IMG/VR virus record: IMGVR_UViG_2671180299_000012
Strand: one strand, 5' to 3'
DNA: 8,641 bases
Origin: a virus
Lineage: Duplodnaviria > Heunggongvirae > Uroviricota > Caudoviricetes
This document shows, piece by piece, positions 755 through 8,641 of this stretch (positions within the stretch are counted from its first letter, which is position 1; every line of letters starts with the position of its first letter). The notes beneath the pieces are model-generated. The model searched no databases, was not told where the DNA came from, and was given only the letters and a program-made list of their open reading frames with translations. Position numbers and translations under genes: made by a program.

Positions 755-1183
755 ATGATATATCCGGAAATTACAGGCAAAAGCGGCGAACATTTACGCC
801 TGAACACGCTGGAAGCAGTCTGGATCCAGGGGAAATTACGGATGTGGGGGCGGTGGTCGTATATCGGTGGGGGTAAATCCGGAAATATGTTTAACCGGTT
901 ACTGGTTTCGAAAAAGCTGACGAAAACAGCAGTTAATGAGGTTTTACGCAGCATGAAGAAATCCGGGCTGGAAAAACCGGAACTTGAGGCATTTTTTCGG
1001 GATATGACCAGAGGGAAGCAGAAGAGCTGGTTGTCACATTGTACAGACACAGAGGCGTTGATTATTGATCGCGTTATCAGTGAGGTGCTTGGGGAATATC
1101 CCGGGCTAATAAGGAAAGCTACCGGGAAGAATTACTTGTTCTCTGAAGATGCCGCCGTCAACACTGCGGTCAGAAAAAGATGA
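755..1183 (+). CDS. Late-gene antitermination protein Q-like (candidate)
   Basis: ORF in the canonical Q position, directly after rusA and before the lysis genes. I prefer the ATG at 755 because a GAGAG/GAGTGAG purine run precedes it; the in-frame GTG at 743 overlaps the rusA stop. The N-terminal LRMWGRWSY and the D..A.II......L...Y pattern loosely resemble small Q proteins of the QuuD type (Phage_antitermQ family). The assignment rests mainly on synteny. Confidence 0.5.
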   Translation: MIYPEITGKSGEHLRLNTLEAVWIQGKLRMWGRWSYIGGGKSGNMFNRLLVSKKLTKTAVNEVLRSMKKSGLEKPELEAFFRDMTRGKQKSWLSHCTDTEALIIDRVISEVLGEYPGLIRKATGKNYLFSEDAAVNTAVRKR

Positions 1184-1370
1184 TGTTGAATCGCGTATTG
1201 AAAAACTGGAGTGCTATATCGCTGAATTGAAAAAAAGCACCCCAACAAAAAATGAGGTGCTTGCAGCAGACGAAATGAAAGAAGCTATTCCTGATCGCGC
1301 GGCGAATCTAAGCTGCGCTTCATGGTTGAAAGAGCATCTTCAGCAGCCTGAAAAAAAAACGCCGCGATGA
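1149..1370 (+). CDS. Hypothetical protein (questionable ORF overlapping the 3-prime end of Q)
   Basis: 73-aa ORF overlapping the Q candidate by 35 nt, with no convincing Shine-Dalgarno at the first ATG. The translation is charged with a coiled-coil-like N-terminus (ESRIEKLECYIAELKK). This interval is also where a lambdoid late promoter, qut site and leader would be expected, so it may be non-coding. Confidence 0.25.
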   Translation: MPPSTLRSEKDDVESRIEKLECYIAELKKSTPTKNEVLAADEMKEAIPDRAANLSCASWLKEHLQQPEKKTPR

Positions 1371-1407
1371 GCAGTTTGCTGCGTTTTACGATTATTGCCG
1401 GAAAGTG

Positions 1408-1812
1408 ATGAGCAGAAATCTCGCAGAGTGTTTCAGTATTCATAATGATAATTTCAGTGACCTGGAATGGGAGTGTAACCGGCCATCCTTTGTTGTATCC
1501 GGTGATGCTGGGAAAATAACCATCTCAGAAAATGGAAAAGTAACACCGCCATCGCACCAGCACAGTGAGGAGCTCATTGAATTTGCCATTGATTACCTGA
1601 AGAACAATAAAAAGCAGGGGCTGATGAAGTGCATTGGTCGTTGCATGGGATATCTTCAGGTAGCCGCTGAGATTGAAGCGCTGGCCAGTGGTGCTGATAA
1701 GGATGCAATTGTGCGGGAGGCTCTTCTTCGTGATTTTAATACTCCACCCTTTAAAAAAGTGCCGGCTTACTGGCTTCATCCGGGGCTGACTTATCTTAAA
1801 GTGCGTATTTAG
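1408..1812 (+). CDS. Hypothetical soluble protein in the Q-to-lysis cargo slot (holin position)
   Basis: 134-aa ORF from the ATG at 1408 (in-frame GTG at 1405), preceded by GGAAAG. It ends 36 nt before the endolysin start. There is no hydrophobic segment long enough for a transmembrane helix, so it is not a holin. No family recognised by inspection. Confidence 0.5.
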   Translation: MSRNLAECFSIHNDNFSDLEWECNRPSFVVSGDAGKITISENGKVTPPSHQHSEELIEFAIDYLKNNKKQGLMKCIGRCMGYLQVAAEIEALASGADKDAIVREALLRDFNTPPFKKVPAYWLHPGLTYLKVRI

Positions 1813-1848
1813 TGGGCCAGGGACAGCGGCTGAATATTTAATATATCC

Positions 1849-2382
1849 ATGAACACCAAAATCAAATACGGCCTGTCGGCTGCCGTTCTGGCGCTGATTG
1901 CCGCTGGTGCGTCTGCGCCTGAAATTCTCGACCAGTTTCTTGACGAAAAAGAAGGTAACCACACCACGGCATACCGTGATGGTGCGGGTATCTGGACCAT
2001 CTGCCGTGGAGCCACCCGGGTGGATGGTAAGCCTGTTATTCCTGGCATGAAGCTGTCGAAGGGGAAATGCGACCAGGTTAACGCCATTGAGCGTGATAAG
2101 GCGCTGGCATGGGTGGCGAAAAACATCAAAGTGCCACTGACTGAACCCCAGAAAGCGGGTATTGCGTCATTCTGTCCTTACAACATTGGCCCAGGTAAGT
2201 GTTTCCCGTCGACGTTTTATAAACGAATTAATGCAGGCGATCGCAGGGGGGCGTGTGAGGCGATTCGCTGGTGGATTAAGGACGGTGGCAGAGACTGCCG
2301 TATTCGCTCAAACAACTGTTACGGTCAGGTATCCCGTCGCGACCAGGAGAGTGCGCTGGCGTGCTGGGGAATTGACAGATAA
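1849..2382 (+). CDS. SAR endolysin (phage lysozyme, T4-lysozyme-like GH24 fold with N-terminal signal-arrest-release domain)
   Basis: 177-aa ORF. The N-terminus YGLSAAVLALIAAGASAP is a weakly hydrophobic Gly/Ala/Ser-rich segment typical of SAR domains. It is followed by the catalytic E-x8-D-x5-T triad (E-GNHTTAYR-D-GAGIW-T). Overall similarity to P21 R and P1 Lyz type endolysins. Confidence 0.9.
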   Translation: MNTKIKYGLSAAVLALIAAGASAPEILDQFLDEKEGNHTTAYRDGAGIWTICRGATRVDGKPVIPGMKLSKGKCDQVNAIERDKALAWVAKNIKVPLTEPQKAGIASFCPYNIGPGKCFPSTFYKRINAGDRRGACEAIRWWIKDGGRDCRIRSNNCYGQVSRRDQESALACWGIDR

Positions 2383-2471
2383 GCAGAATATTTTGCTGAA
2401 AAATGCGGTTTGCTCGCACGGACGGATAACACGAAATCCTGCGAACTGACAAAAACTAAGTGAATAAAAGT

Positions 2472-2510
2472 AAAAACCCCGTTTGTTGGCTGCAAGCGGG
2501 GTTTTGTGTT
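2472..2510 (+). terminator. Rho-independent terminator downstream of the endolysin gene
   Basis: AAAAACCCCG (2472-2481), a 15-nt loop, then CGGGG (2497-2501) followed by TTTTGTGTTT. This is a GC-rich stem with a T-tract on the + strand and an A-tract on the other side, so it may act in both directions. Confidence 0.6.
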
Positions 2511-2541
2511 TCCTGACTCTGGAAAAGTCAAAGGAGAAAGT

Positions 2542-2679
2542 GTGTTTGATTTTAGCAAACTGATTCGGGAGATTCGAGTGATGGCTGAAAAATTATCCAC
2601 CTGGAAGTTCATTCTTATCTGGCTGGTGTTTGTGATTATGGCCTCCGGTTATTTCATCGGTCAGATACGCTGGTGGTGA
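2542..2679 (+). CDS. Small single-pass membrane peptide between endolysin and spanins (function unknown; candidate lysis accessory protein)
   Basis: 45-aa ORF from the GTG at 2542 (AAGGAG at 2531-2536, 5-nt spacer), or 32 aa from the ATG at 2581. It ends at TGA 2677-2679, one nucleotide before the Rz ATG. It contains one strongly hydrophobic stretch, WKFILIWLVFVIMASGYFIGQI. Below the 60-aa threshold of the ORF track. Confidence 0.4.
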   Translation: MFDFSKLIREIRVMAEKLSTWKFILIWLVFVIMASGYFIGQIRWW

Positions 2680-2680
2680 A

Positions 2681-3148
2681 ATGAACCGCGTACTGTGCGT
2701 GGTCATCATTGCCCTGCTGGTGGCCTGTGGTGCGCTTAGTCTGGGGCTGAATCATTACCGTGATAACGCCATAACCTACAAAGAGCAGCGCGATAAAAAA
2801 GTCAGTGAGCTGGAGCAGGCAAATGCAACCATTACTGATATGCAGCAGCGCCAGCGTGATGTTGCTGCACTTGATGCCAGATACTCGAGGGAATTAGCCG
2901 ATGCGAGAGCTGAAAATGAAACTCTTCGCGCTGACGTTGCCGCTGGTCGTAAGCGCCTGCGGATCAACGCCACCTGTCCAGGCTCCGTGCGTGAAGCCCC
3001 CGCCACCTCCGGCGTGGATAATGCAACCGGCCCCCAACTGGCAGACACCGTTACACGGGATTATTTCACCCTCAGAGAGCGGCTGATGACGATGCACAAG
3101 CAACTGGAAGGGGCACAGGACTATATCCGCACTCAGTGCCTGAAATAA
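2681..3148 (+). CDS. Rz-like inner-membrane spanin (i-spanin)
   Basis: 155-aa ORF with an N-terminal TM helix (VLCVVIIALLVACGALSLGL) and a charged, coiled-coil-prone periplasmic domain. It lies downstream of the endolysin and carries a nested +1-frame lipoprotein ORF, which is the classic Rz/Rz1 architecture. Confidence 0.85.
   Translation: MNRVLCVVIIALLVACGALSLGLNHYRDNAITYKEQRDKKVSELEQANATITDMQQRQRDVAALDARYSRELADARAENETLRADVAAGRKRLRINATCPGSVREAPATSGVDNATGPQLADTVTRDYFTLRERLMTMHKQLEGAQDYIRTQCLK
2901..3086 (+). CDS. Rz1-like outer-membrane lipoprotein spanin (o-spanin), embedded in the Rz gene in the +1 frame
   Basis: 61-aa ORF wholly inside Rz (alternative ATG at 2916). It has a signal peptide with a lipobox (LPLVVSAC) followed by a short proline-rich mature region (CGSTPPVQAPCVKPPPPPAW), the hallmark of Rz1 proteins. 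Confidence 0.8.
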   Translation: MRELKMKLFALTLPLVVSACGSTPPVQAPCVKPPPPPAWIMQPAPNWQTPLHGIISPSESG

Positions 3149-3480
3149 GTTTTGTTGATGCGCCGTATCGTCGCTGTATTCCCTCATTAACAGAGACCGC
3201 AGCCCGACAGGGAGACTCCTCTGCGCGAGTGTGCGGGGATAATCAAAAACGATACACACCGGGGTTTACCGCGTTAACGGAGCGCGGCGTTGTCCCCTCA
3301 TGGTCGCTGGTTCGGTGCGATGGTGGAAGAAACCGGACGATGTGTTACCTCGCAAGACCTGTTATGTCATGTGTCTGATTTGTGATTTAAGTCGGATAAT
3401 TGTCGTTGCCATTAAGCAGAGGATTGATGGCCGACAGGGTGGCATTGTTAGAATAAGACTTATTCTTATCTGTGCCGGGA

Positions 3481-3813
3481 ATGAAAATGAAAAGAAATCT
3501 TCCGTTAATTATTTTGTTGTCTTCTCTGGTTATGGGCTGTACGCAACATAAAACAGATATGCCCCGACAGTTGGTTAAGGCATTACCACAATATCCGGCC
3601 TATGCAGCGGCAAATTATATAAAGGGACGGGTTGATGTGAAGTTTGATATTGGTGCTGATGGTACTGTCACCCGAATTGAGTTTATCCGTTCAGAGCCGC
3701 ACCATCTGTTTGATGAGCAGGTTGTAAAGGCGATGGCAAAATGGCGATTTGAGAAGGACAGGCCGCGTAAAGGCGTGAAGAAAACGTTTATCTTTAGTCC
3801 TTCTGCACCCTGA
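3481..3813 (+). CDS. Lipoprotein with TonB C-terminal domain (phage moron; function unknown)
   Basis: ORF with possible starts at GTG 3472, ATG 3481 or ATG 3487. It has a signal peptide with a lipobox (LSSLVMGC) and Thr at +2. The mature part (YPAYAAANYIKGRVDVKFDIGADGTVTRIEFIRSEPHHLFDEQVVKAMAKWRFE) aligns residue by residue with the E. coli TonB C-terminal domain ([54 protein letters not shown]). There is no proline-rich spacer or N-terminal TM anchor. A possible sigma70 promoter lies upstream (TTGATG, ~19 nt, TAGAAT at about 3424-3454). Confidence 0.7.
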   Translation: MKMKRNLPLIILLSSLVMGCTQHKTDMPRQLVKALPQYPAYAAANYIKGRVDVKFDIGADGTVTRIEFIRSEPHHLFDEQVVKAMAKWRFEKDRPRKGVKKTFIFSPSAP

Positions 3814-3944
3814 TTATTTCATCAGAAATTAATTATCACTCTGTTGTTATTCTGTACATTCCGGCTGGGTAAGTCTTGTTCCGCCGGGTATGAAGATGAA
3901 ATATTGTTGGAGGACAGTGGGTACCTGCTCCTGTAACCGAACGT

Positions 3945-4169
3945 TCATTTCTCGTTATTTGTCATGCTGGCCGGGCGCAGATGCGTTGCATCTGTTGCCA
4001 GCCTTCTCCTGCAGGCTTCAATAACCCACGCTGAAAAGTTACCGGAACCTTTATGTTCAAGGGCGATATTGATCTGTTCAATCATGTGATTGGGAAACGG
4101 ATATTGCGGGTTGTGGTTCTGCGGGTCCGGTTTTTCGATGACATATTTATTTCCTTTACTGATTGCCAT
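3945..4169 (-). CDS. Arc/Mnt-like ribbon-helix-helix DNA-binding protein
   Basis: 74-aa minus-strand ORF. The segment PQYPFPNHMIEQINIALEHKGSGNFSAWVIEA matches the Arc pattern PQFNLRWPREVLDLVRKVAEENGRSVNSEIYQRV, with the beta-strand, first helix and G-x-S/N turn in register. It is divergent from the HNH gene with only 16 bp between the two start codons. Confidence 0.6.
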   Translation of the reverse strand: MAISKGNKYVIEKPDPQNHNPQYPFPNHMIEQINIALEHKGSGNFSAWVIEACRRRLATDATHLRPASMTNNEK

Positions 4170-4185
4170 ATGACGGGGATTTTAC

Positions 4186-4551
4186 ATGGCTGAGCTTCGT
4201 ACACTCCAGAGCAGAATCAAAACACTGAATACCCGACGGGTGAATATTCTGAAGGGTGAACAGCGTCGTGTCAGTGGCAGTGCACGTGTTTCCCTCAAGC
4301 GTCATATCTGGCTCAGGGACGCCGGGCAGTGCCGTCTCTGTGGTCGTGTGGTTGACCTCTGTGACAGTGAACTCGATCACCGAATTGCACTTCAGTTCGG
4401 TGGTGGTAATGAGGAGACGAATCTCTGGACGCTCTGTACCGAATGCCATCGACAAAAGTCTGCTCGTGAAGCGGCGAGTGATATGCCGGACCCGACGCTG
4501 CCGGAGGTGTCCGGAGGTAGTGGCAGAGAGGACGACATCATCGGACTGTAA
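4186..4551 (+). CDS. HNH endonuclease (packaging-associated HNH of cos-type, HK97-like phages)
   Basis: 121-aa ORF with a CRLCG ... DHRIALQFGGGNEETNLWTLCTECHRQK HNH/zinc-finger motif. It sits immediately upstream of the cos-like region and terS, the characteristic position of HNH proteins that assist terminase in HK97-like phages. Its last 23 codons (from 4483) lie inside tandem repeat copy 1. Confidence 0.85.
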   Translation: MAELRTLQSRIKTLNTRRVNILKGEQRRVSGSARVSLKRHIWLRDAGQCRLCGRVVDLCDSELDHRIALQFGGGNEETNLWTLCTECHRQKSAREAASDMPDPTLPEVSGGSGREDDIIGL

Positions 4552-5003
4552 CCCGACCCCGGGGGGGGTATCATCCGGCGTAAAAAACGATCGCTTTGGA
4601 CACCGCCCCCCGTCTCACGCAGAGAAAAAATTCCCGTTTCAGGGCAGTTAACATGTTAACTGGCTGTCCGGGCATTTTTGCGGTTTTTATCTTTATTATT
4701 CAGTTTGTTGCGTGGAAAAAATGTTAACAGGCTTTTTCAGCAAATGTTAACCAGGCAGCAGTTAACATTTGCGGCATGAGACGCCGGGAAAAATGGGCTG
4801 AACCATACCCGGCTGAGTGCGTTATGGACCCGGGAGGAGGCTGTGCTGACAACGCAAAAACGAAAATTTGCGCTGGCGCTCATGTCCGGGAAAAACAAAA
4901 CAGCGTCAGCCATTGCCGCTGGTTATTCGGCGAAGACCGCCAGGGTTAAAGGCTCGCAGCTGGCAAAAGATCCGGAGGTGCTTGCGTTTATAGCCCGTAA
5001 ACA
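4483..5003. repeat. Tandem direct repeat, copy 1 (~521 bp): HNH 3-prime tail + cos-like intergenic region + first 161 bp of terS
   Basis: Direct comparison with 5008..5526 gives about 13 differences in ~520 bp, including a 2-nt indel (ACCCC versus AGC before a G8 tract). The 161 bp of terS coding sequence is identical in both copies. Confidence 0.9.
4645..4768. promoter_or_regulatory. Putative cos / terminase-recognition region: 18-bp perfect palindrome plus ATGTTAAC motif array (copy 1)
   Basis: CAGTTAACATGTTAACTG (4645-4662) is a perfect 18-bp palindrome. Further ATGTTAAC motifs lie at 4721-4728 and 4744-4751, with the inverted form GTTAACAT at 4761-4768. The region sits between the HNH gene and terS, where cos lies in HK97/lambda-like phages. 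Function is inferred. Confidence 0.4.
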
Positions 5004-5076
5004 AGGTATGCCGGACCCGACGCTGCCGGAGGTGTCCGGAGGTAGTGGCAGAGCGGACGACATCATCGGACTGTAA
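4843..5076 (+). CDS. Duplication-derived chimeric ORF: terS N-terminal 55 codons fused to the duplicated HNH C-terminal tail (possible pseudogene or decoy)
   Basis: GTG start at 4843 with the same GGGAGGAGG RBS as the full terS. Residues 1-54 are identical to the terS N-terminus (MLTTQKRKFALALMSGKNKTASAIAAGYSAKTARVKGSQLAKDPEVLAFIARKQ). At the repeat junction (~5004-5007) it switches to GMPDPTLPEVSGGSGRADDIIGL, the HNH tail with one E-to-A change. Confidence 0.5.
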   Translation: MLTTQKRKFALALMSGKNKTASAIAAGYSAKTARVKGSQLAKDPEVLAFIARKQGMPDPTLPEVSGGSGRADDIIGL

Positions 5077-5526
5077 CCCGAGCGGGGGGGGTATCATCCG
5101 GCGTAAAAAACGATCGCTCCGGACACCGCGCCCCCTCTCACGCAGAGAAAAAATTCCCGTTTCAGGGCAGTTAACATGTTAACTGGCTGCCCGGGCATTT
5201 TTGCGGTTTTTATCTTTATTATTCAGTTTGTTGTGCGGAAAAAATGTTAACTGGCTTTTTCAGCAAATGTTAACCAGGCAGCAGTTAACATTTGCGGCAT
5301 GAGACGCCGGGAAAAATGGGCTGAACCATACCCGGCTGAGTGCGTTCTGGACCCGGGAGGAGGCTGTGCTGACAACGCAAAAACGAAAATTTGCGCTGGC
5401 GCTCATGTCCGGGAAAAACAAAACAGCGTCAGCCATTGCCGCTGGTTATTCGGCGAAGACCGCCAGGGTTAAAGGCTCGCAGCTGGCAAAAGATCCGGAG
5501 GTGCTTGCGTTTATAGCCCGTAAACA
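5008..5526. repeat. Tandem direct repeat, copy 2 (~519 bp)
   Basis: See copy 1. The offset between copies is 525 bp before the indel and 523 bp after it. Copy 2 runs directly into the remainder of the full-length terS. Confidence 0.9.
5168..5291. promoter_or_regulatory. Putative cos / terminase-recognition region (copy 2)
   Basis: Same 18-bp palindrome (5168-5185) and ATGTTAAC motifs (5244-5251, 5267-5274; inverted 5284-5291) as copy 1. All motif cores are identical between copies; the substitutions fall between them. Confidence 0.4.
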
Positions 5527-5929
5527 GTGCGAGACGGTGGAGGTGGATGAGGTTCCTGTTTACCGGCAGAAAAAATCAGAGCAGGAGGATAAACCCCGTC
5601 GCCGTGAGGCGGCTGCAATACCACAGCCGGACGAAAACAATCCGGAGATGCCACCGTCCGCGGTGATGTCTCCTGGTATTGAATATATGGAGGATGGTCT
5701 TCCCGATCCGGTGAAAGCCATGGGGCGGATCCTGGTGGAAAACCTCTGCATTGATCCGAAACTGGCACTGGATGCGGCCTGGCGTCTGGCGCAGTTCACG
5801 CACCATAAAAAAGGGGATACCGGGAAAAAATCGGCAAAAGGTGATGCCGCGAAAAAAGCGGCTAACCGTTTTGCGGTGCCACCGCCACCCCGACTGGTGG
5901 TGAATAACGATAATGAGGAAAGCGGATGA
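5366..5929 (+). CDS. Terminase small subunit (Terminase_2-type)
   Basis: 187-aa ORF with a GTG start and GGGAGGAGG RBS. The N-terminus LTTQKRKFALALMSGKNKTASAIAAGYSAKTARVKGSQLAKDPEV matches the conserved HTH DNA-binding region of small terminases. Its stop overlaps the terL start (ATGA at 5926-5929), indicating translational coupling. Confidence 0.85.
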   Translation: MLTTQKRKFALALMSGKNKTASAIAAGYSAKTARVKGSQLAKDPEVLAFIARKQCETVEVDEVPVYRQKKSEQEDKPRRREAAAIPQPDENNPEMPPSAVMSPGIEYMEDGLPDPVKAMGRILVENLCIDPKLALDAAWRLAQFTHHKKGDTGKKSAKGDAAKKAANRFAVPPPPRLVVNNDNEESG

Positions 5930-7587
5930 TACCTGTATGGAGCACAGCCTGCCCGGACTGGGCAGAGCGCCTGAAAAAGGGGCTGTCGATTATTCCGGAT
6001 CCGATTTATCCGGACGAGGCCGCACATGCCCTGGCGATTTTTAAACAACTGCGGATTGTGGATGCACCTGGTAGCCCGACGTTCGGGGAGTCCTGTGCAC
6101 CGTGGGTGTTTGACCTGGTGGCGGCCCTGTTTGGCTCCTACGATGCGCAGACCGGTGTACGCCATATCAAGGAAGTTTTTATCCTTATCCCCAAGAAAAA
6201 CTCGAAGTCCACGCTGGCCGCGGGGATCATGATGACGGCGCTGTTACTGAACTGGCGGCAGGCGGCGGGTTACACGATTCTGGCCCCGACTGTGGAGGTG
6301 GCGGCCAACGCCTTCAACCCTGCCCGGGATATGGTACGACGTGACGATGATCTGGATGACCTCTGCCAGGTACAGACCCATATCCGGACCATCACCCACA
6401 GGGTGACAGACACCACCCTGAAGGTGGTGGCAGCCGATCCGAATACGGTGTCCGGTATCAAGTCCGTGGGTACGCTGATTGATGAGTTGTGGCTGTTTGG
6501 CAAGCAGTGCAAGGCGGAGGACATGTTACGTGAAGCCATAGGCGGCCTTGCCTCCCGCCCGGAAGGGTTTGTGGTGTATACGACCACCCAGTCGAATGAA
6601 CCGCCCGCCGGGGTATTCAGACAGAAACTGCAGTACGCCCGGGATGTGCGCGACGGCAAAATTCATGATCCGCACTTTCTGCCGGTGATATTTGAATACC
6701 CTCCTGAAATGGTGGAAAGCGGGGCTCACCTGCTGATGGAAAACCTCGCCATGGTCAATCCGAATCTCGGCTATTCAGTGGATGAGGCCTTTCTGTACCG
6801 GGAGTACCGTAAAGCCCGGGAAGCCGGTGAAGAGACATTCCGGGGGTTCATGTCAAAACACGCCAATGTGGAAATTGGTCTTGCCCTGCGCTCTGACCGC
6901 TGGGCGGGGGCTGATTTCTGGGAAGAGCAGGGCCGTTGTATCAGCCTGGACGATATCCTGCGTCGTGCTGATGTGGTGACGGTGGGGATTGACGGCGGAG
7001 GGCTGGATGATCTGCTGGGGATGTATGTGATTGGGCGTGACCGGGAGACCCGCGAATGGCTGGGCTGGGGCCATGCCTGGGCGCATGAAACCGCGGTGGT
7101 CCGACGGAAGAGCGAGGCGTCCCGGTTTCAGGATCTTGTTGCCTGTGGAGATATGACCATTGTCCGGCGTGTCGGGGATGACACGGCGGAAGTGGCGGAA
7201 TATGTGCGTCGCATTCATGAGGCTGAGTTACTGGACCATATCGGTATTGACCCGTCAGGGGTGGGGCAGATTCTGGATTCACTGGCGGAAGCCGGGATCC
7301 CCGACGGAATTGTGGTGGGGATAAGCCAGGGCTGGAAACTGGGCGGGGCCATTAAAACCACCGAGCGCAAACTGGCTGAAGGGGTGCTGGTGCATGGTGA
7401 CCAGCCCCTGATGGCCTGGTGTGTCGGCAATGCCCGGGTGGAGCCTAAAGGTAACGCCATTCTTATCACCAAACAGGCCAGTGGACGGGGAAAAATTGAC
7501 CCGCTGATGGCGCTGTTCAATGCGGTCTCCCTGATGTCCCTTAACCCGGAACCGAAAAAGAAAGAATATGCGGTTTTTTTCATATAA
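5926..7587 (+). CDS. Terminase large subunit (HK97-like Terminase_1 family)
   Basis: 553-aa ORF with a deviant Walker A-like PKKNSKST, a Walker B-like LIDELW, and nuclease-domain acidic motifs (VTVGIDGGGLDDLLG, GIDPSG, KIDPLMALFNA). Its size and position right after terS fit a large terminase. Confidence 0.9.
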   Translation: MIPVWSTACPDWAERLKKGLSIIPDPIYPDEAAHALAIFKQLRIVDAPGSPTFGESCAPWVFDLVAALFGSYDAQTGVRHIKEVFILIPKKNSKSTLAAGIMMTALLLNWRQAAGYTILAPTVEVAANAFNPARDMVRRDDDLDDLCQVQTHIRTITHRVTDTTLKVVAADPNTVSGIKSVGTLIDELWLFGKQCKAEDMLREAIGGLASRPEGFVVYTTTQSNEPPAGVFRQKLQYARDVRDGKIHDPHFLPVIFEYPPEMVESGAHLLMENLAMVNPNLGYSVDEAFLYREYRKAREAGEETFRGFMSKHANVEIGLALRSDRWAGADFWEEQGRCISLDDILRRADVVTVGIDGGGLDDLLGMYVIGRDRETREWLGWGHAWAHETAVVRRKSEASRFQDLVACGDMTIVRRVGDDTAEVAEYVRRIHEAELLDHIGIDPSGVGQILDSLAEAGIPDGIVVGISQGWKLGGAIKTTERKLAEGVLVHGDQPLMAWCVGNARVEPKGNAILITKQASGRGKIDPLMALFNAVSLMSLNPEPKKKEYAVFFI

Positions 7588-7612
7588 CCCTGTTCACACT
7601 GTAACCATCACG

Positions 7613-7637
7613 AACCGCTCCGGCGGTTTTTTTATTT
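7613..7637 (+). terminator. Weak terminator-like hairpin between terL and the protease gene
   Basis: ACCGC-tccg-GCGGT stem followed by TTTTTTTATTTT at 7627-7638. The stem is short; function is uncertain. Confidence 0.3.
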
Positions 7638-7650
7638 TCAGGAGGCTGAT

Positions 7651-8641
7651 GTGACTCTTAAACGGGCCTGTTCCCTGCTGACGGTGAAATCCTTCAGTGA
7701 GGATGAACGGGTGATCACCGGGATTGCGTCAACACCTTCTCCGGATCGGGATGGTGACATCCTGGAGCCGGAGGGCGCGGAGTTTGGCAGTGCGATCCCG
7801 TTTCTCTGGCAGCATGACCATTCCCGCCCGGTGGGGCAGTGTACGGTACGCCGGGTCAGCGAAGGGCTGGAAATCACGGCAACACTGGTGAAGCCCGTAC
7901 CGGATATGCCGTCGCAACTGGCTGCCCGGCTGGATGAGGTCTGGGCGGCCATTAAGACCGGGCTGGTCAGGGGGCTGTCCGTGGGCTTCCGTCCCCATGA
8001 ATACACCTTTCTGGACGGAGGCGGACTGCATTTTCTGCGCTGGGAACTGATGGAGGTGTCTGCCGTCACCGTGCCCGCGAATGCGGAATGCACCATCCGG
8101 ACCATTAAATCTTACGACCGCCCGTTTTCTGCCGCGTCCGGCAACCGGAAACCGGTGGTGAAAATCGCATCTTCTGCCGGCGCTGCGGCACAGTCAACAA
8201 CCGTTTTTCATAAGGAAAAGACCATAATGAATATTGGCGAACAGATTAAAAGTTTTGAAAACAAGCGTGCAGCGCTGGCAGCCTCCCTTGAGGAGGTCAT
8301 GACCAAAGCCGCAGAGGAAGGGCGCACGCTGGATGTGGAGGAGGAAGAGCATTACGACAACACCGCAGCGGAAATCCGTCAGGTGGATGCGCACCTGAAG
8401 CGTCTGCGTGAACTGGAAGCCGGTAAGGCCGCCACGGCGCAGCCGGTGAAACAGGCCGGTAACGGGAATGTGGCCGCGGTGGCTTCTGCGCCGGTGATCC
8501 GTGTGGAGCAGAAACTGGATAAGGGGATTGGCTTCGCCCGCTTTGCCAAATCGCTGGCTGCGGCTAAAGGCGTCCGATCTGAAGCCCTGGAAGTGGCCCG
8601 TCGTCAGTATCCGGATGACAGTCGTCTGCATCATGTCCTGA
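7651..8641 (+). CDS. HK97-family prohead protease continuing in frame into the major capsid protein N-terminal delta domain (3-prime end outside the window)
   Basis: GTG start at 7651 with AGGAGG 5 nt upstream. Frame 1 stays open to the end of the window, which is why it is missing from the ORF track. Residues ~1-150 carry prohead-protease motifs (ITGIASTPSPDRDGDILEP, FLWQHDHSRPVGQ, LSVGFRP, WELMEVSAVTVPANAEC). After a Ser/Ala-rich linker, an internal ATG at 8227 (AAGGA RBS 10 nt upstream) begins a coiled-coil sequence (MNIGEQIKSFENKRAALAASLEEVMTKAAEEGRTLDVEEEEHY...) typical of HK97-like capsid delta/scaffold domains. Confidence 0.75.
   Translation, partial: MTLKRACSLLTVKSFSEDERVITGIASTPSPDRDGDILEPEGAEFGSAIPFLWQHDHSRPVGQCTVRRVSEGLEITATLVKPVPDMPSQLAARLDEVWAAIKTGLVRGLSVGFRPHEYTFLDGGGLHFLRWELMEVSAVTVPANAECTIRTIKSYDRPFSAASGNRKPVVKIASSAGAAAQSTTVFHKEKTIMNIGEQIKSFENKRAALAASLEEVMTKAAEEGRTLDVEEEEHYDNTAAEIRQVDAHLKRLRELEAGKAATAQPVKQAGNGNVAAVASAPVIRVEQKLDKGIGFARFAKSLAAAKGVRSEALEVARRQYPDDSRLHHVL

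Follow-up and report, generated by a model that had tools for sequence, protein, structure and literature searches.

Two natural prophage alleles joined head to tail at a cos region in an Escherichia coli draft contig: probably a product of assembly

How a single prophage contig comes to carry two cos regions in tandem, with a chimeric ORF across the join between them, is the question raised by the locus described here. The window is the entire 8,641-bp, all-prophage contig CYEX01000057.1 of draft assembly GCA_001286325.1. A first-pass annotation, made from the letters alone, had reported two back-to-back direct repeats in it, at 4483-5003 and 5008-5526, and had read them as a diverged tandem duplication. 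The repeats are indeed present; with the bounds refined here (Table 1), copy A measures 525 nt and copy B 523 nt. The divergence, put at about 2.5% or some 13 positions, was reproduced as 13 alignment columns, of which 11 are substitutions and the other two a single 2-nt indel (97.5% identity), and a 520-nt repeat at this level of identity is far outside chance. All of the differences fall within 4529-4824, one in the HNH tail and the others in the intergenic region. Downstream of these, 4825-5003 equals 5348-5526 over 179 nt with zero differences, a block that spans the ribosome-binding site (RBS) and terS nucleotides 1 to 161, much as had been noted. Each copy holds HNH codons 99/100 to 121 with the stop codon, the intergenic region, the RBS, and the first 54 codons of terS.

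Table 1. Positions of the features discussed, in coordinates of the 8,641-bp window
Feature	Position	Strand	Basis or content
Second private blunt junction	1110..1111		5,114-bp gap relative to MB06102; 3′ end of DUF1133 gene joined to 3′ end of ydfR; spanned by GGGCTAATAAGGAAAGCTACC
HNH endonuclease gene, intact, 121 aa	4186..4551	+	ORF; Pfam PF01844, 33.8 bits (cutoff 21.4)
Interval of switch from MB06102-type backbone to X-type	4211..4319		109 nt the same in both alleles; last X-discriminating mismatch at 4210, first MB-discriminating mismatch at 4320
Repeat copy A	4480..5004	+	HNH tail, cos region, terS codons 1-54; X-type allele
cos cleavage-site equivalent, copy A	4604..4613	+	CGCCCCCCGT; homology to Lys8385Vzw ends
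Copy A ATGTTAAC array	4645..4768		Five motifs, orientations - + + + -; includes palindrome 4645-4662
77-aa chimeric ORF	4843..5076	+	TerS residues 1-54 plus HNH residues 99-121, in frame; RBS and GTG start as in terS
Novel blunt junction AAACAA/GGTATG	5004..5005		X-allele terS codon 54 to MB-allele HNH codon 99, in frame, no microhomology; spanned by ATAGCCCGTAAACAAGGTATGCCGGACCCG
Repeat copy B	5005..5527	+	HNH codons 99-121, cos region, terS codons 1-54; MB06102-type; runs into full terS
cos cleavage-site equivalent, copy B	5127..5136	+	CGCGCCCCCT; homology to Lys8385Vzw ends
Copy B ATGTTAAC array	5168..5291		Five motifs; includes palindrome 5168-5185
Small terminase gene terS, full-length, 187 aa	5366..5929	+	PF03592, 36.0 bits (cutoff 26.1), residues 2-57 only
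Large terminase gene, 553 aa	5926..7587	+	Pfam TerL_ATPase and TerL_nuclease

The three ORFs proposed for this region (intact HNH, full-length terS, and a 77-aa ORF) were confirmed at their positions. An identical HNH protein is common, and it is encoded ca. 290 nt upstream of terS in 10 of the 10 other genomes compared. The terS product is annotated as terminase small subunit in relatives; its Pfam match is confined to positions 1 to 56 of the 141-position Terminase_2 model, and residues 58 to 106 are of low confidence in a single-sequence structure model. By its N-terminal helix-turn-helix DNA-binding domain, judged from sequence and predicted structure, the protein fits Terminase_2 (SF6/SPP1 G1P type). 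The 77-aa ORF, which lies among the late-operon genes of the phage and has a gene call in the source contig's annotation, was correctly described as the TerS DNA-binding N terminus followed by the HNH tail. Terminase_2 is matched at its residues 2 to 54 (37.4 bits against a cutoff of 26.1), and it keeps the whole predicted helix-turn-helix domain of TerS minus 2 residues. AF2 yielded a confident four-helix domain at residues 1 to 56 (pLDDT of 84 to 91 over residues 1 to 50), for which the best fold match in Foldseek was the DNA-binding domain of the SF6 small terminase (4zc3; TM of 0.85, rmsd of 1.6 Å, probability of 1.00, but E = 0.02). No oligomerization region is predicted in the 77-aa product, and beyond the DNA-binding domain it has only the 23-residue HNH tail. 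A homology search of 5.8 billion clusters returned no protein bridging TerS and HNH, only ordinary or truncated TerS fragments, and an exact look-up of the 77-aa sequence in the protein collection was likewise negative.

Both copies carry the full set of elements expected around the packaging site. An 18-nt perfect palindrome, CAGTTAACATGTTAACTG, occurs in each, as do the terS RBS GGAGGAGG and its GTG start. The motif ATGTTAAC is present five times per copy; the window total of 10 compares with 0.14 expected and was reached in 0 of 200 shuffles, and the motifs are unvaried across all aligned relatives. The first-pass annotation had called these regions cos-like, and they prove to be the equivalents of a true cos. 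The Stx1 phage Lys8385Vzw has 3′ cohesive ends with the cos sequence CGCCCCCCCT, its termini having been mapped with PhageTerm (PMC7946995). When the ends of its virion genome record, MT225100, were aligned to the window, they fell in both copies with nearly identical flanks; in Lys8385Vzw itself they lie in the HNH-terS spacer, 59 nt past the HNH stop codon. Since the virion termini align in both copies, the deposited sequence has, by homology, two cos-equivalent sites 523 bp apart. The two 10-mers differ at 2 of 10 bases, and the copy A allele, CGCCCCCCGT, is also seen in L007 to L009 and in L018. The array of copy A begins 32 nt and ends 155 nt downstream of the cos cut, and we consider the arrays to be candidate TerS recognition sites.

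Lambdoid and Stx phages with the HNH-terS-terL order, such as Lys8385Vzw, BP-4795, and Stx2 phage 1717, show 92 to 98% DNA identity to the window across the cos region and share its gene order (lysis genes, TonB-like, DUF3950, HNH, cos, terS, terL, and protease-capsid fusion). They differ from it in having one cos region each, whereas the window has two, with the overhangs given in Table 1 in place of the single overhang of Lys8385Vzw. The arrangement also recalls HK97-type packaging, in which, according to Kala et al. 2014 (cited in PMC11331095), an HNH protein helps the terminase to act at cos. As in HK97, cos and the terminase genes directly follow the HNH gene, the cohesive ends have a 10-nt 3′ overhang, and the neighboring genes are HK97-like capsid/protease and head-completion genes. 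On the other hand, HK97 TerS has no well-defined DNA-binding domain in structures solved without DNA and recognizes a site of 15 bp that begins 15 bp after the cut, on its downstream side, whereas the window TerS is a Terminase_2 protein with an SF6-like helix-turn-helix. Whichever origin is accepted for the repeat, homology locates the cos cut in a packaging module that is very common in E. coli/Stx prophages, and the 10-nt overhang of this module varies, no fewer than three alleles of it being present in phages that are otherwise nearly identical.

The origin of the two copies was clarified by comparing each of them separately with single-copy relatives. Copy B and all that follows it (5005-8641) differ at 0 of 3,637 bases from the single-copy prophage of E. 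coli MB06102, and the stretch at 1111-3974 likewise has 0 mismatches to that prophage, all differences being within 3975-4824. The stretch at 4211-5004 belongs instead to another natural single-copy prophage allele, here called X (CAU16175, PEC240, and EPSSH018), from which it shows 0 differences in 794 bases, the A at 5004 included; the narrower stretch 4483-4842 is 100% identical to the same three prophages. The alleles switch exactly at the junction, where base 5004 is the X-type A (G in MB06102) and base 5006 is the MB-type G (A in X). Upstream of the repeat, the DNA of the HNH gene is itself a mosaic, its 5′ part being of MB06102 type and its 3′ part of X type from 4320 at the latest, and the switch in the interval between (Table 1) is either a homologous crossover or a change of path through an assembly graph. 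The G at 3975 remains a separate difference outside the match to X. A search for one donor of all of 3950-5004 found none, the best candidate reaching 99.0% and a perfect match being obtained only on restriction to 4211-5004. On these matches, the repeat is the same HNH-cos-terS′ locus from two pre-existing lambdoid-prophage alleles, placed head to tail, and the 13 differences are those between the two alleles, switching at the blunt junction.

These matches bear directly on the original reading, namely, that the cos region of one phage was duplicated in tandem long ago within one molecule, drifted by 2.5%, and retained an identical terS 5′ end through gene conversion or purifying selection. 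That reading had drawn on the clustering of the differences in the noncoding part and on the identity of the first 161 nt of terS. However, drift could not have led, at every one of the 13 sites, to alleles that already existed; the X-type tract reaches some 160 to 270 nt upstream of the repeat and into HNH, and the parental alleles MB06102 and X were already identical to each other over terS nucleotides 1 to 161. An old duplication would also be expected in relatives. The relatives, which it had been proposed to search for single-copy versions, were single copy in every case examined, including some with no flank mismatch over thousands of bases, and the differences show a pattern handed down by two parents rather than acquired after a duplication. 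Since each copy is a perfect match to a separate natural allele (A to the CAU16175 type and B to the MB06102 type), the 13 differences are not the result of drift, gene conversion, or selection; the diverged-duplication model is refuted, and we give it the lowest probability of all the accounts weighed here. Sequencing error was rejected as the source of the divergence, every variant being a natural allele, and an untrimmed circular overlap or phage terminal repeat was rejected as well, given that the repeat is internal, its alleles differ, and the bounds of its unit are not at cos.

There remains the matter of what joined the two alleles. We judge it moderately probable that the repeat is a false "heterotype" duplication of two coresident prophage paralogs made in the draft assembly; the evidence is circumstantial, and it points to the assembly, most likely, rather than the cell as the agent of the joining. 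By this account, an assembly contig would have tracked the X paralog to the end of the stretch common to both paralogs and would then have been set before a second contig, the start of which in the MB paralog lies 523 bp further back in homologous coordinates; because the copies differ by 2.5%, the two contigs would have been abutted and not merged. The organism would then possess two ordinary prophages with one cos each, and neither the 77-aa ORF nor the double cos would exist. The source is a short contig of a draft assembly and consists wholly of prophage, and coresident paralogs are usual: the module occupies a median of 2 and a maximum of 8 places per E. coli genome. Strain 19AR0254 carries, at separate loci, an MB-type prophage with 0 mismatches and one 1-base indel relative to 5005-8641 and an X-like prophage identical to 4211-4710, with one cos in each. 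The position of the junction is also suggestive. Its left edge is the end of the 179-nt block shared by the alleles plus one polymorphic base, and its right edge falls 3 nt after another shared block, of 143 nt, and so misses the exact prediction for a graph branch by 3 nt. Edges of allele-identity blocks are where assembly graphs branch, and by a rough estimate it is very improbable that a random in vivo breakpoint would fall there. Furthermore, a 52-aa partial TerS (P0015, in a cluster of 74 members and labeled "partial" at NCBI) ends ca. 2 codons before the junction, which we count as a sign that draft assemblies often break at this place.

Assembly errors in which divergent alleles are falsely set in tandem where contigs meet have been documented by the Vertebrate Genomes Project (bioRxiv 10.1101/2020.05.22.110833), and read depth is their usual diagnostic. 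The likeness is that two divergent alleles are kept in tandem, at what in the present case may be a contig boundary, that each has its own variants, and that identical or collapsed sequence separates the divergent parts; here too, the copies are two distinct, internally consistent alleles or paralogs of one locus. The differences are that the "haplotypes" in the present case would be paralogous prophages of a haploid bacterium and that the copies abut without Ns.

The main competing account is that the junction is a real hybrid tandem duplication, in which MB-type and X-type lambdoid phages, or coresident prophages of these types, recombined. This would have taken a homologous exchange within the 4211-4319 interval of HNH and an illegitimate blunt join of X terS nucleotide 162 to MB HNH nucleotide 295, leaving HNH intact and giving rise to the in-frame 77-aa fusion and to a pair of complete cos regions, spaced by 523 bp, whose 10-nt overhangs are not identical. 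Lambdoid prophages commonly recombine with one another, and a close relative does house donor-like prophages together with one of MB type. Neither copy lacks any element of the cos region, and the fusion runs codon to codon in frame, although at a chance of 1 in 9 this is weak evidence. The deposited contig contains no Ns, and graph assemblers require reads behind any novel junction. De Bruijn assemblers, in particular, cannot make a junction without supporting k-mers, so the artifact reading must assume a scaffolding or concatenation step. A route through SSPACE/GapFiller was considered as the cause and found to be unsupported; according to the GapFiller paper, an overlap of at least 10 nt between the two extensions is required before a gap is closed, which gives no support to closure without overlap, and we name no particular program as the cause. 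Also counted against an artifact is the contig end at 8641, which, with 19AR0254 as a proxy, was not found at a long run identical between MB and X.

Against a real hybrid stand, first, its breakpoints, which coincide with the edges of the allele-identity blocks, and second, the nature of the join. A few bases of homology are usual in illegitimate recombination in E. coli, and the junction is without microhomology. A third consideration is distribution. Among 5,426 complete E. coli genomes the 5004/5005 junction was absent (by 44-mer matching across the junction only), a 30-mer across it was absent from GTDB representative genomes, IMG/VR, and JGI metagenomes, and it was absent from the 19 loci fetched; the double-cos structure is thus seen in one draft contig only, against more than 3,000 copies of the module in complete genomes. 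Finally, a real hybrid needs a crossover, an illegitimate join, and a separate deletion, all of them private to one contig. We regard it as possible but the less probable of the two accounts. A third origin for the junction would be an in vitro chimera, in which template switching or ligation during library preparation or amplification joined fragments of the two prophages and the product was then carried through assembly. A blunt, homology-free join of two alleles that were both in the sample would fit such an event; even so, rare single molecules should not beat the true assembly paths, it is very unlikely that a random chimera would link homologous regions on the same strand with an offset of only 523 bp, and we hold this origin to be highly improbable.

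Should the junction be real, its consequences would be of some interest. In lambda, packaging starts at one cos and ends at the following one downstream (PMC4856287). By analogy, packaging from cos B to the next cos A would delete the duplicated segment and leave ends mismatched at 2 of 10 bases, while packaging from cos A to cos A would retain the duplication; because the former deletes the segment, the structure would be expected to be unstable in lytic growth and to persist mainly as a prophage. A search of the literature on tandem-cos phages yielded nothing useful. Laboratory derivatives of lambda with two identical cos sites were reportedly made or selected by Emmons in 1974 and by Feiss and coworkers. 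If the window structure is real, it would resemble these in that a direct-orientation pair of cos sites lets packaging start or stop at either one, excising the segment between; it would differ in its spacing of only 523 bp, in its overhangs, which are not the same, and in its terminase family. The window would then hold a rare natural double-cos prophage with two overhang alleles, a modest extension of the classic lambda work on cos duplications.

The first-pass annotation had gone further, with the suggestions that a truncated TerS could compete with the full-length protein at cos and that two cos sites could alter packaging. Both are speculative. A precedent of sorts is Rpp of the E. coli PICIs, which interferes with packaging by mimicking TerS and which has its own dimerization domain, forms a defined complex with TerS, and is satellite encoded (PMC6739421); the PICI EcCICFT073 also has two cos sites. 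As with Rpp, competition with TerS, or its redirection, would in principle be open to any small protein whose DNA-binding domain is like that of TerS. Unlike Rpp, the 77-aa ORF is a truncated TerS domain with a 23-residue tail, it sits in a phage late operon, and homologues spanning the fusion were not among the search results; having no dimerization module of its own and not being satellite encoded, it falls outside the Rpp-like class. That the junction is real, that the prophage carries complete cos regions captured from two phage lineages, their overhangs differing at 2 of 10 bases, that a free TerS DNA-binding domain is expressed from its late operon, and that either this domain is a competitor of TerS for the ATGTTAAC array or the two cos sites are used in alternation for packaging, is in our estimation very unlikely. 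If all this were nonetheless true, the locus would hold a built-in packaging switch or handicap, and it would amount to an experiment of nature on how specific cos is, and how compatible the ends are, where terminases depend on an HNH protein.

If, as we favor, the junction arose in assembly, the locus is a cautionary one: paralogous prophages in draft E. coli assemblies can mimic "diverged duplications," complete with invented fusion genes. The check applied here is reusable. When each copy is compared separately with single-copy relatives, a perfect match to different alleles together with a switch at the junction excludes divergence after duplication.

A second private junction, at 1110/1111 on the same contig, was considered from both sides. 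It is also blunt, with 0 microhomology, and as such was counted in favor of an assembly artifact. The contiguous sequence 1-1500 was not found in any complete E. coli genome, and the DUF1133 fusion protein that results is seen in one contig only. In four DUF1133 lineages compared, the junction did not coincide with a polymorphic site; alleles on the side of ydfR diverge by ca. 9%, so the position is uninformative there. Counted against an artifact were the result from the DUF1133 lineages and the length of the gap (5.1 kb), which is too long for ordinary read pairs to bridge. The junction looks like a genuine deletion, which would suggest a rearranged prophage and to that extent would favor a real hybrid at 5004/5005. 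The missing 5,114 bp include a methyltransferase gene, three tRNAs, an SASA/DUF6645 gene, and the holin gene; if the structure is real, the holin and a portion of the late regulator appear to be missing from the prophage, which is probably defective. The 1110/1111 junction may be a real deletion, and if it is, real blunt rearrangements do occur in this prophage.

The window comprises all 8641 bp of contig CYEX01000057.1 in an Escherichia coli draft assembly (GCA_001286325.1) and is the late region of a lambdoid prophage, with genes in the order DUF968, RusA, DUF1133, lysozyme, Rz, TonB_C-like protein, DUF3950/YlcI, HNH, TerS (Pfam Terminase_2), TerL, and protease-capsid fusion. Among 5426 complete E. 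coli genomes, about 1250 carry the HNH-cos-terS module (median, 2 copies per genome; maximum, 8), and many Stx1/Stx2 phages, e.g., BP-4795, 1717, and 2851, also use it for packaging. The first-pass annotation had described two adjacent direct repeats here, together with an intact HNH gene, a chimeric 77-aa open reading frame (ORF), and a full terS; all of these are present, and we have refined the repeat boundaries to those in the table. Each unit contains the HNH tail, the entire HNH-terS spacer, within which lies a perfect palindrome of 18 nt (CAGTTAACATGTTAACTG), and the start of terS. Between the copies there are 11 substitutions and a single 2-nt indel, all within 4529-4824, while their final 179 nt, including the ribosome-binding site and terS nt 1-161, are identical. 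The motif ATGTTAAC is found five times per unit; all 10 occurrences in the window lie in the two spacers (0.14 expected).

Coordinates of the repeat units and the features within and around them
Feature	Position in window	Length, sequence, or content	Basis
Copy A	4480-5004	525 nt	Alignment of the two copies and comparison with single-copy relatives
Copy B	5005-5527	523 nt	Alignment of the two copies and comparison with single-copy relatives
Intact HNH gene	4186-4551		ORF
77-aa ORF	4843-5076		ORF
Full terS	5366-5929		ORF
Cos cut equivalent, copy A	4604-4613	CGCCCCCCGT	Alignment with Lys8385Vzw ends
Cos cut equivalent, copy B	5127-5136	CGCGCCCCCT	Alignment with Lys8385Vzw ends
ATGTTAAC array	4645-4768 and 5168-5291	Five motifs, orientations - + + + -	

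Comparison with relatives revealed that the two copies are different parental alleles. The closest relatives, prophages of E. coli MB06102, 19AR0254, and NZRM4169, are each single copy. Relative to MB06102, the window has 0 mismatches over 1111-3974 and over the 3637 nt of 5005-8641; the differences are limited to positions 3975, 4320, 4333, 4477, and 4481 and the 13 sites separating the copies, and copy B is thus the resident (MB-type) allele. Over the 360 nt that distinguish copy A (4483-4842), the window matches the single-copy prophages of CAU16175, EPSSH018, and PEC240 (X-type) at 100% identity, and the whole of 4211-5004 likewise shows no difference from them, including the A at 5004 (G in MB06102); upstream of 4211, the window diverges sharply from these and agrees with MB06102. 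The contig is therefore a mosaic of the two types: MB-type to 4210, a switch somewhere within the 109 nt common to both alleles (4211-4319), X-type to 5004, and MB-type again from HNH codon 99 across a blunt junction (5004/5005, AAACAA/GGTATG). At 5006, the window has the G of the MB variant, the equivalent position of its own HNH gene (4481) being A. An old duplication is ruled out, because the prophages with zero mismatches in the flanks are single copy, and the duplication followed by divergence that had been proposed is scarcely credible, each copy being 100% identical to a different single-copy allele. The related suggestion of gene conversion or selection on the 5′ end of terS loses its basis as well, since the X and MB alleles were already identical over terS nt 1-161 (the first difference is at nt 162, and divergence becomes strong only deeper in the gene), so that the pattern of differences was simply inherited. 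As a separate observation, the G at 3975 (A in MB06102) is the sole difference outside the X-type tract and lies inside the DUF3950/YlcI-family ORF (3945-4169, minus strand), which is 74 aa in the window and 66 aa in most relatives, and which is annotated as frameshifted in MB06102, 19AR0254, and NZRM4169.

The 5004/5005 junction was not found in the 5426 complete E. coli genomes, GTDB representatives, IMG/VR, JGI metagenomes, or 19 individual loci, and no protein spanning the fusion occurs among 5.8 billion clusters. We consider, with modest confidence, that the most likely outcome is a false duplication created during assembly and that the feature is not real. The allele switch coincides exactly with the junction. 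On its left, a 179-nt stretch that is the same in both alleles is followed by one polymorphic base before the join, and the right edge lies 3 nt past a 143-nt identical block; the assembly graphs of two paralogs branch at such block ends, and this coincidence would be improbable for a random in vivo breakpoint (rough estimate, 0.001-0.01). Co-resident paralogs are usual in E. coli, and strain 19AR0254 provides an example: its MB-type prophage (L002) differs from 5005-8641 by one 1-base indel and no mismatches, the HNH-cos region of its second prophage (L027, 2972059-2982418) is identical to 4211-4710, and each prophage has one cos. False heterotype duplications, in which divergent alleles are set in tandem at contig boundaries, are a documented class of error, and the repeat would belong to that class if it is an artifact. 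Other draft assemblies also break nearly at this point, as seen in P0015, a “partial” TerS of 52 aa that represents 74 member sequences. Many draft E. coli contigs end in terS near codon 52 or in the DUF1133 gene at codons 99-124, and the frequency of such ends (P0015, P0025, and P0047-P0057) indicates habitual, repeat-induced break points in short-read assemblies. The two late regions of 19AR0254 lie about 0.5 Mb apart in opposite orientations; the X-like one is itself a mosaic, differing from CAU16175 at sites equivalent to 4711-4920, with MB-like bases at 4711, 4713, 4729, and 4824.

However, the support for an artifact is circumstantial. Graph assemblers require k-mers across a junction, so the step by which two ends came to abut must be assumed, and the GapFiller paper, which makes an overlap of at least 10 nt a condition of closing a gap, does not back closure by simple abutment. 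Moreover, the right edge misses the exact predicted branch position, and the contig end (using 19AR0254 as a proxy) falls where there is no long run identical between MB and X. These points leave room for a real hybrid duplication through interphage recombination, comprising a homologous exchange within 4211-4319 and a blunt illegitimate join, which we regard as possible though rather doubtful; a chimera formed in vitro is very improbable.

Another blunt junction, also private to this contig and also lacking microhomology, lies at 1110/1111. Positions 1-1110 correspond to MB06102 2407325-2408434 and the sequence from 1111 to MB06102 2413549 onward, skipping 5114 bp that encode the 3′ part of DUF1133, a DNA methyltransferase, tRNA-Ile, two tRNA-Arg, a SASA/DUF6645 gene, the holin, and most of ydfR. 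This join was found in no complete genome, and the 142-aa fusion ORF that it creates (755-1183, CTZ36678.1) is known from this contig only. It may be either a real deletion or a second misjoin; it does not fall at a polymorphic site in four DUF1133 lineages and looks like a genuine deletion, a point against the artifact reading of the repeat. A real deletion would make the prophage defective. As deposited, the prophage has no holin and only a DUF1133 late-regulator-like gene truncated at its 3′ end, and so it may not be inducible at all. At best, the repeat is a private variant in a prophage that is probably defective.

The 77-aa product joins TerS residues 1-54 codon to codon with HNH residues 99-121. 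Pfam Terminase_2 matches its residues 2-54 (37.4 bits; cutoff, 26.1), and single-sequence AlphaFold modeling of TerS predicts a four-helix domain with confidence at residues 1-56 but gives mostly low confidence elsewhere. The best PDB fold match is the isolated SF6 small terminase DNA-binding domain (4zc3; TM, 0.85; root mean square deviation, 1.6 Å; E-value, 0.02), and sequence-level PDB matches are weak (E = 0.2-0.4). The fusion therefore retains essentially the whole DNA-binding domain and nothing else of TerS, in agreement with the composition first proposed for it. No oligomerization region is predicted, and because it would be a lone domain, the protein would probably bind DNA weakly. 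If the structure is real, the protein would use the terS translation signals. Interference of the kind exerted by the packaging-interference protein Rpp (PMC6739421) is conceivable but purely speculative.

Homology allows the cos cut site to be located in this very common module. The Stx1 phage Lys8385Vzw (MT225100) has a virion-derived genome whose termini were assigned by PhageTerm as 3′ cohesive ends, with cos CGCCCCCCCT at the end of the genome (PMC7946995); in the record, the last base lies 59 nt past the HNH stop and the first about 229 nt ahead of the terS GTG. When the joined ends were aligned to the window, the last virion base fell at 4613 (copy A) and at 5136 (copy B), so the description of the region as cos-like was well founded. 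The two equivalents are 523 bp apart and unlike at 2 of 10 overhang positions. Near-identical phages carry at least three natural overhang alleles, and phages with unlike alleles would yield ends not fully complementary to one another. Across loci L001-L019 and L021/L022, the 10-mer is CGCGCCCCCT in 15 of 20 sampled copies and CGCCCCCCGT in 5, with CGCCCCCCCT as the Lys8385Vzw allele. The ATGTTAAC array (extended consensus, AAATGTTAAC(T/C)(G/A)G) begins 32 nt and ends 155 nt downstream of the cut, on the first-packaged side, and is unchanged in all aligned relatives; its first two motifs together form the palindrome. In lambda (cosB) and HK97, TerS recognition sites likewise lie downstream of the cut on the first-packaged side, and by analogy the array is a candidate for the site that TerS recognizes in this terminase family.

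Each copy contains a cut site with at least 122 nt before it and the complete motif array after it, so either could begin or end packaging if the structure is real. Lambda packaging proceeds from one cos to the next downstream cos. By analogy, a chromosome packaged from cos B to the following cos A would be without both the 523-bp segment and the 77-aa ORF and would have ends mismatched at 2 of 10 positions, and a cos A-to-cos A chromosome would retain the duplication; a real duplication would thus resolve itself in lytic growth and be stable only as a prophage. Laboratory lambda phages with cos duplications exist, and the double cos, if real, would be similar. The packaging module groups with the cos terminases that are associated with an HNH protein, for which HK97 is the paradigm (Kala et al. 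[2014], as cited in PMC11331095), although its TerS carries a helix-turn-helix domain like that of SF6.

A G-run (4557-4569 and 5082-5092) lies about 45 nt ahead of the cut; preceded by ACCCC or AGC, it is one arm of an imperfect inverted repeat whose other arm is the C-rich cut site, and it has 5 to 9 G's among loci L001-L019, a range that sequencing error in some records may alter. PPompW prophages of O157-type strains (LC567818, LC567822, and others), whose cos-region matches begin at query base 82, have an annotated ISEc20 (IS110 family) that separates the HNH stop from the cos cut and borders the G-run, at the equivalent of about 5088 in the window.
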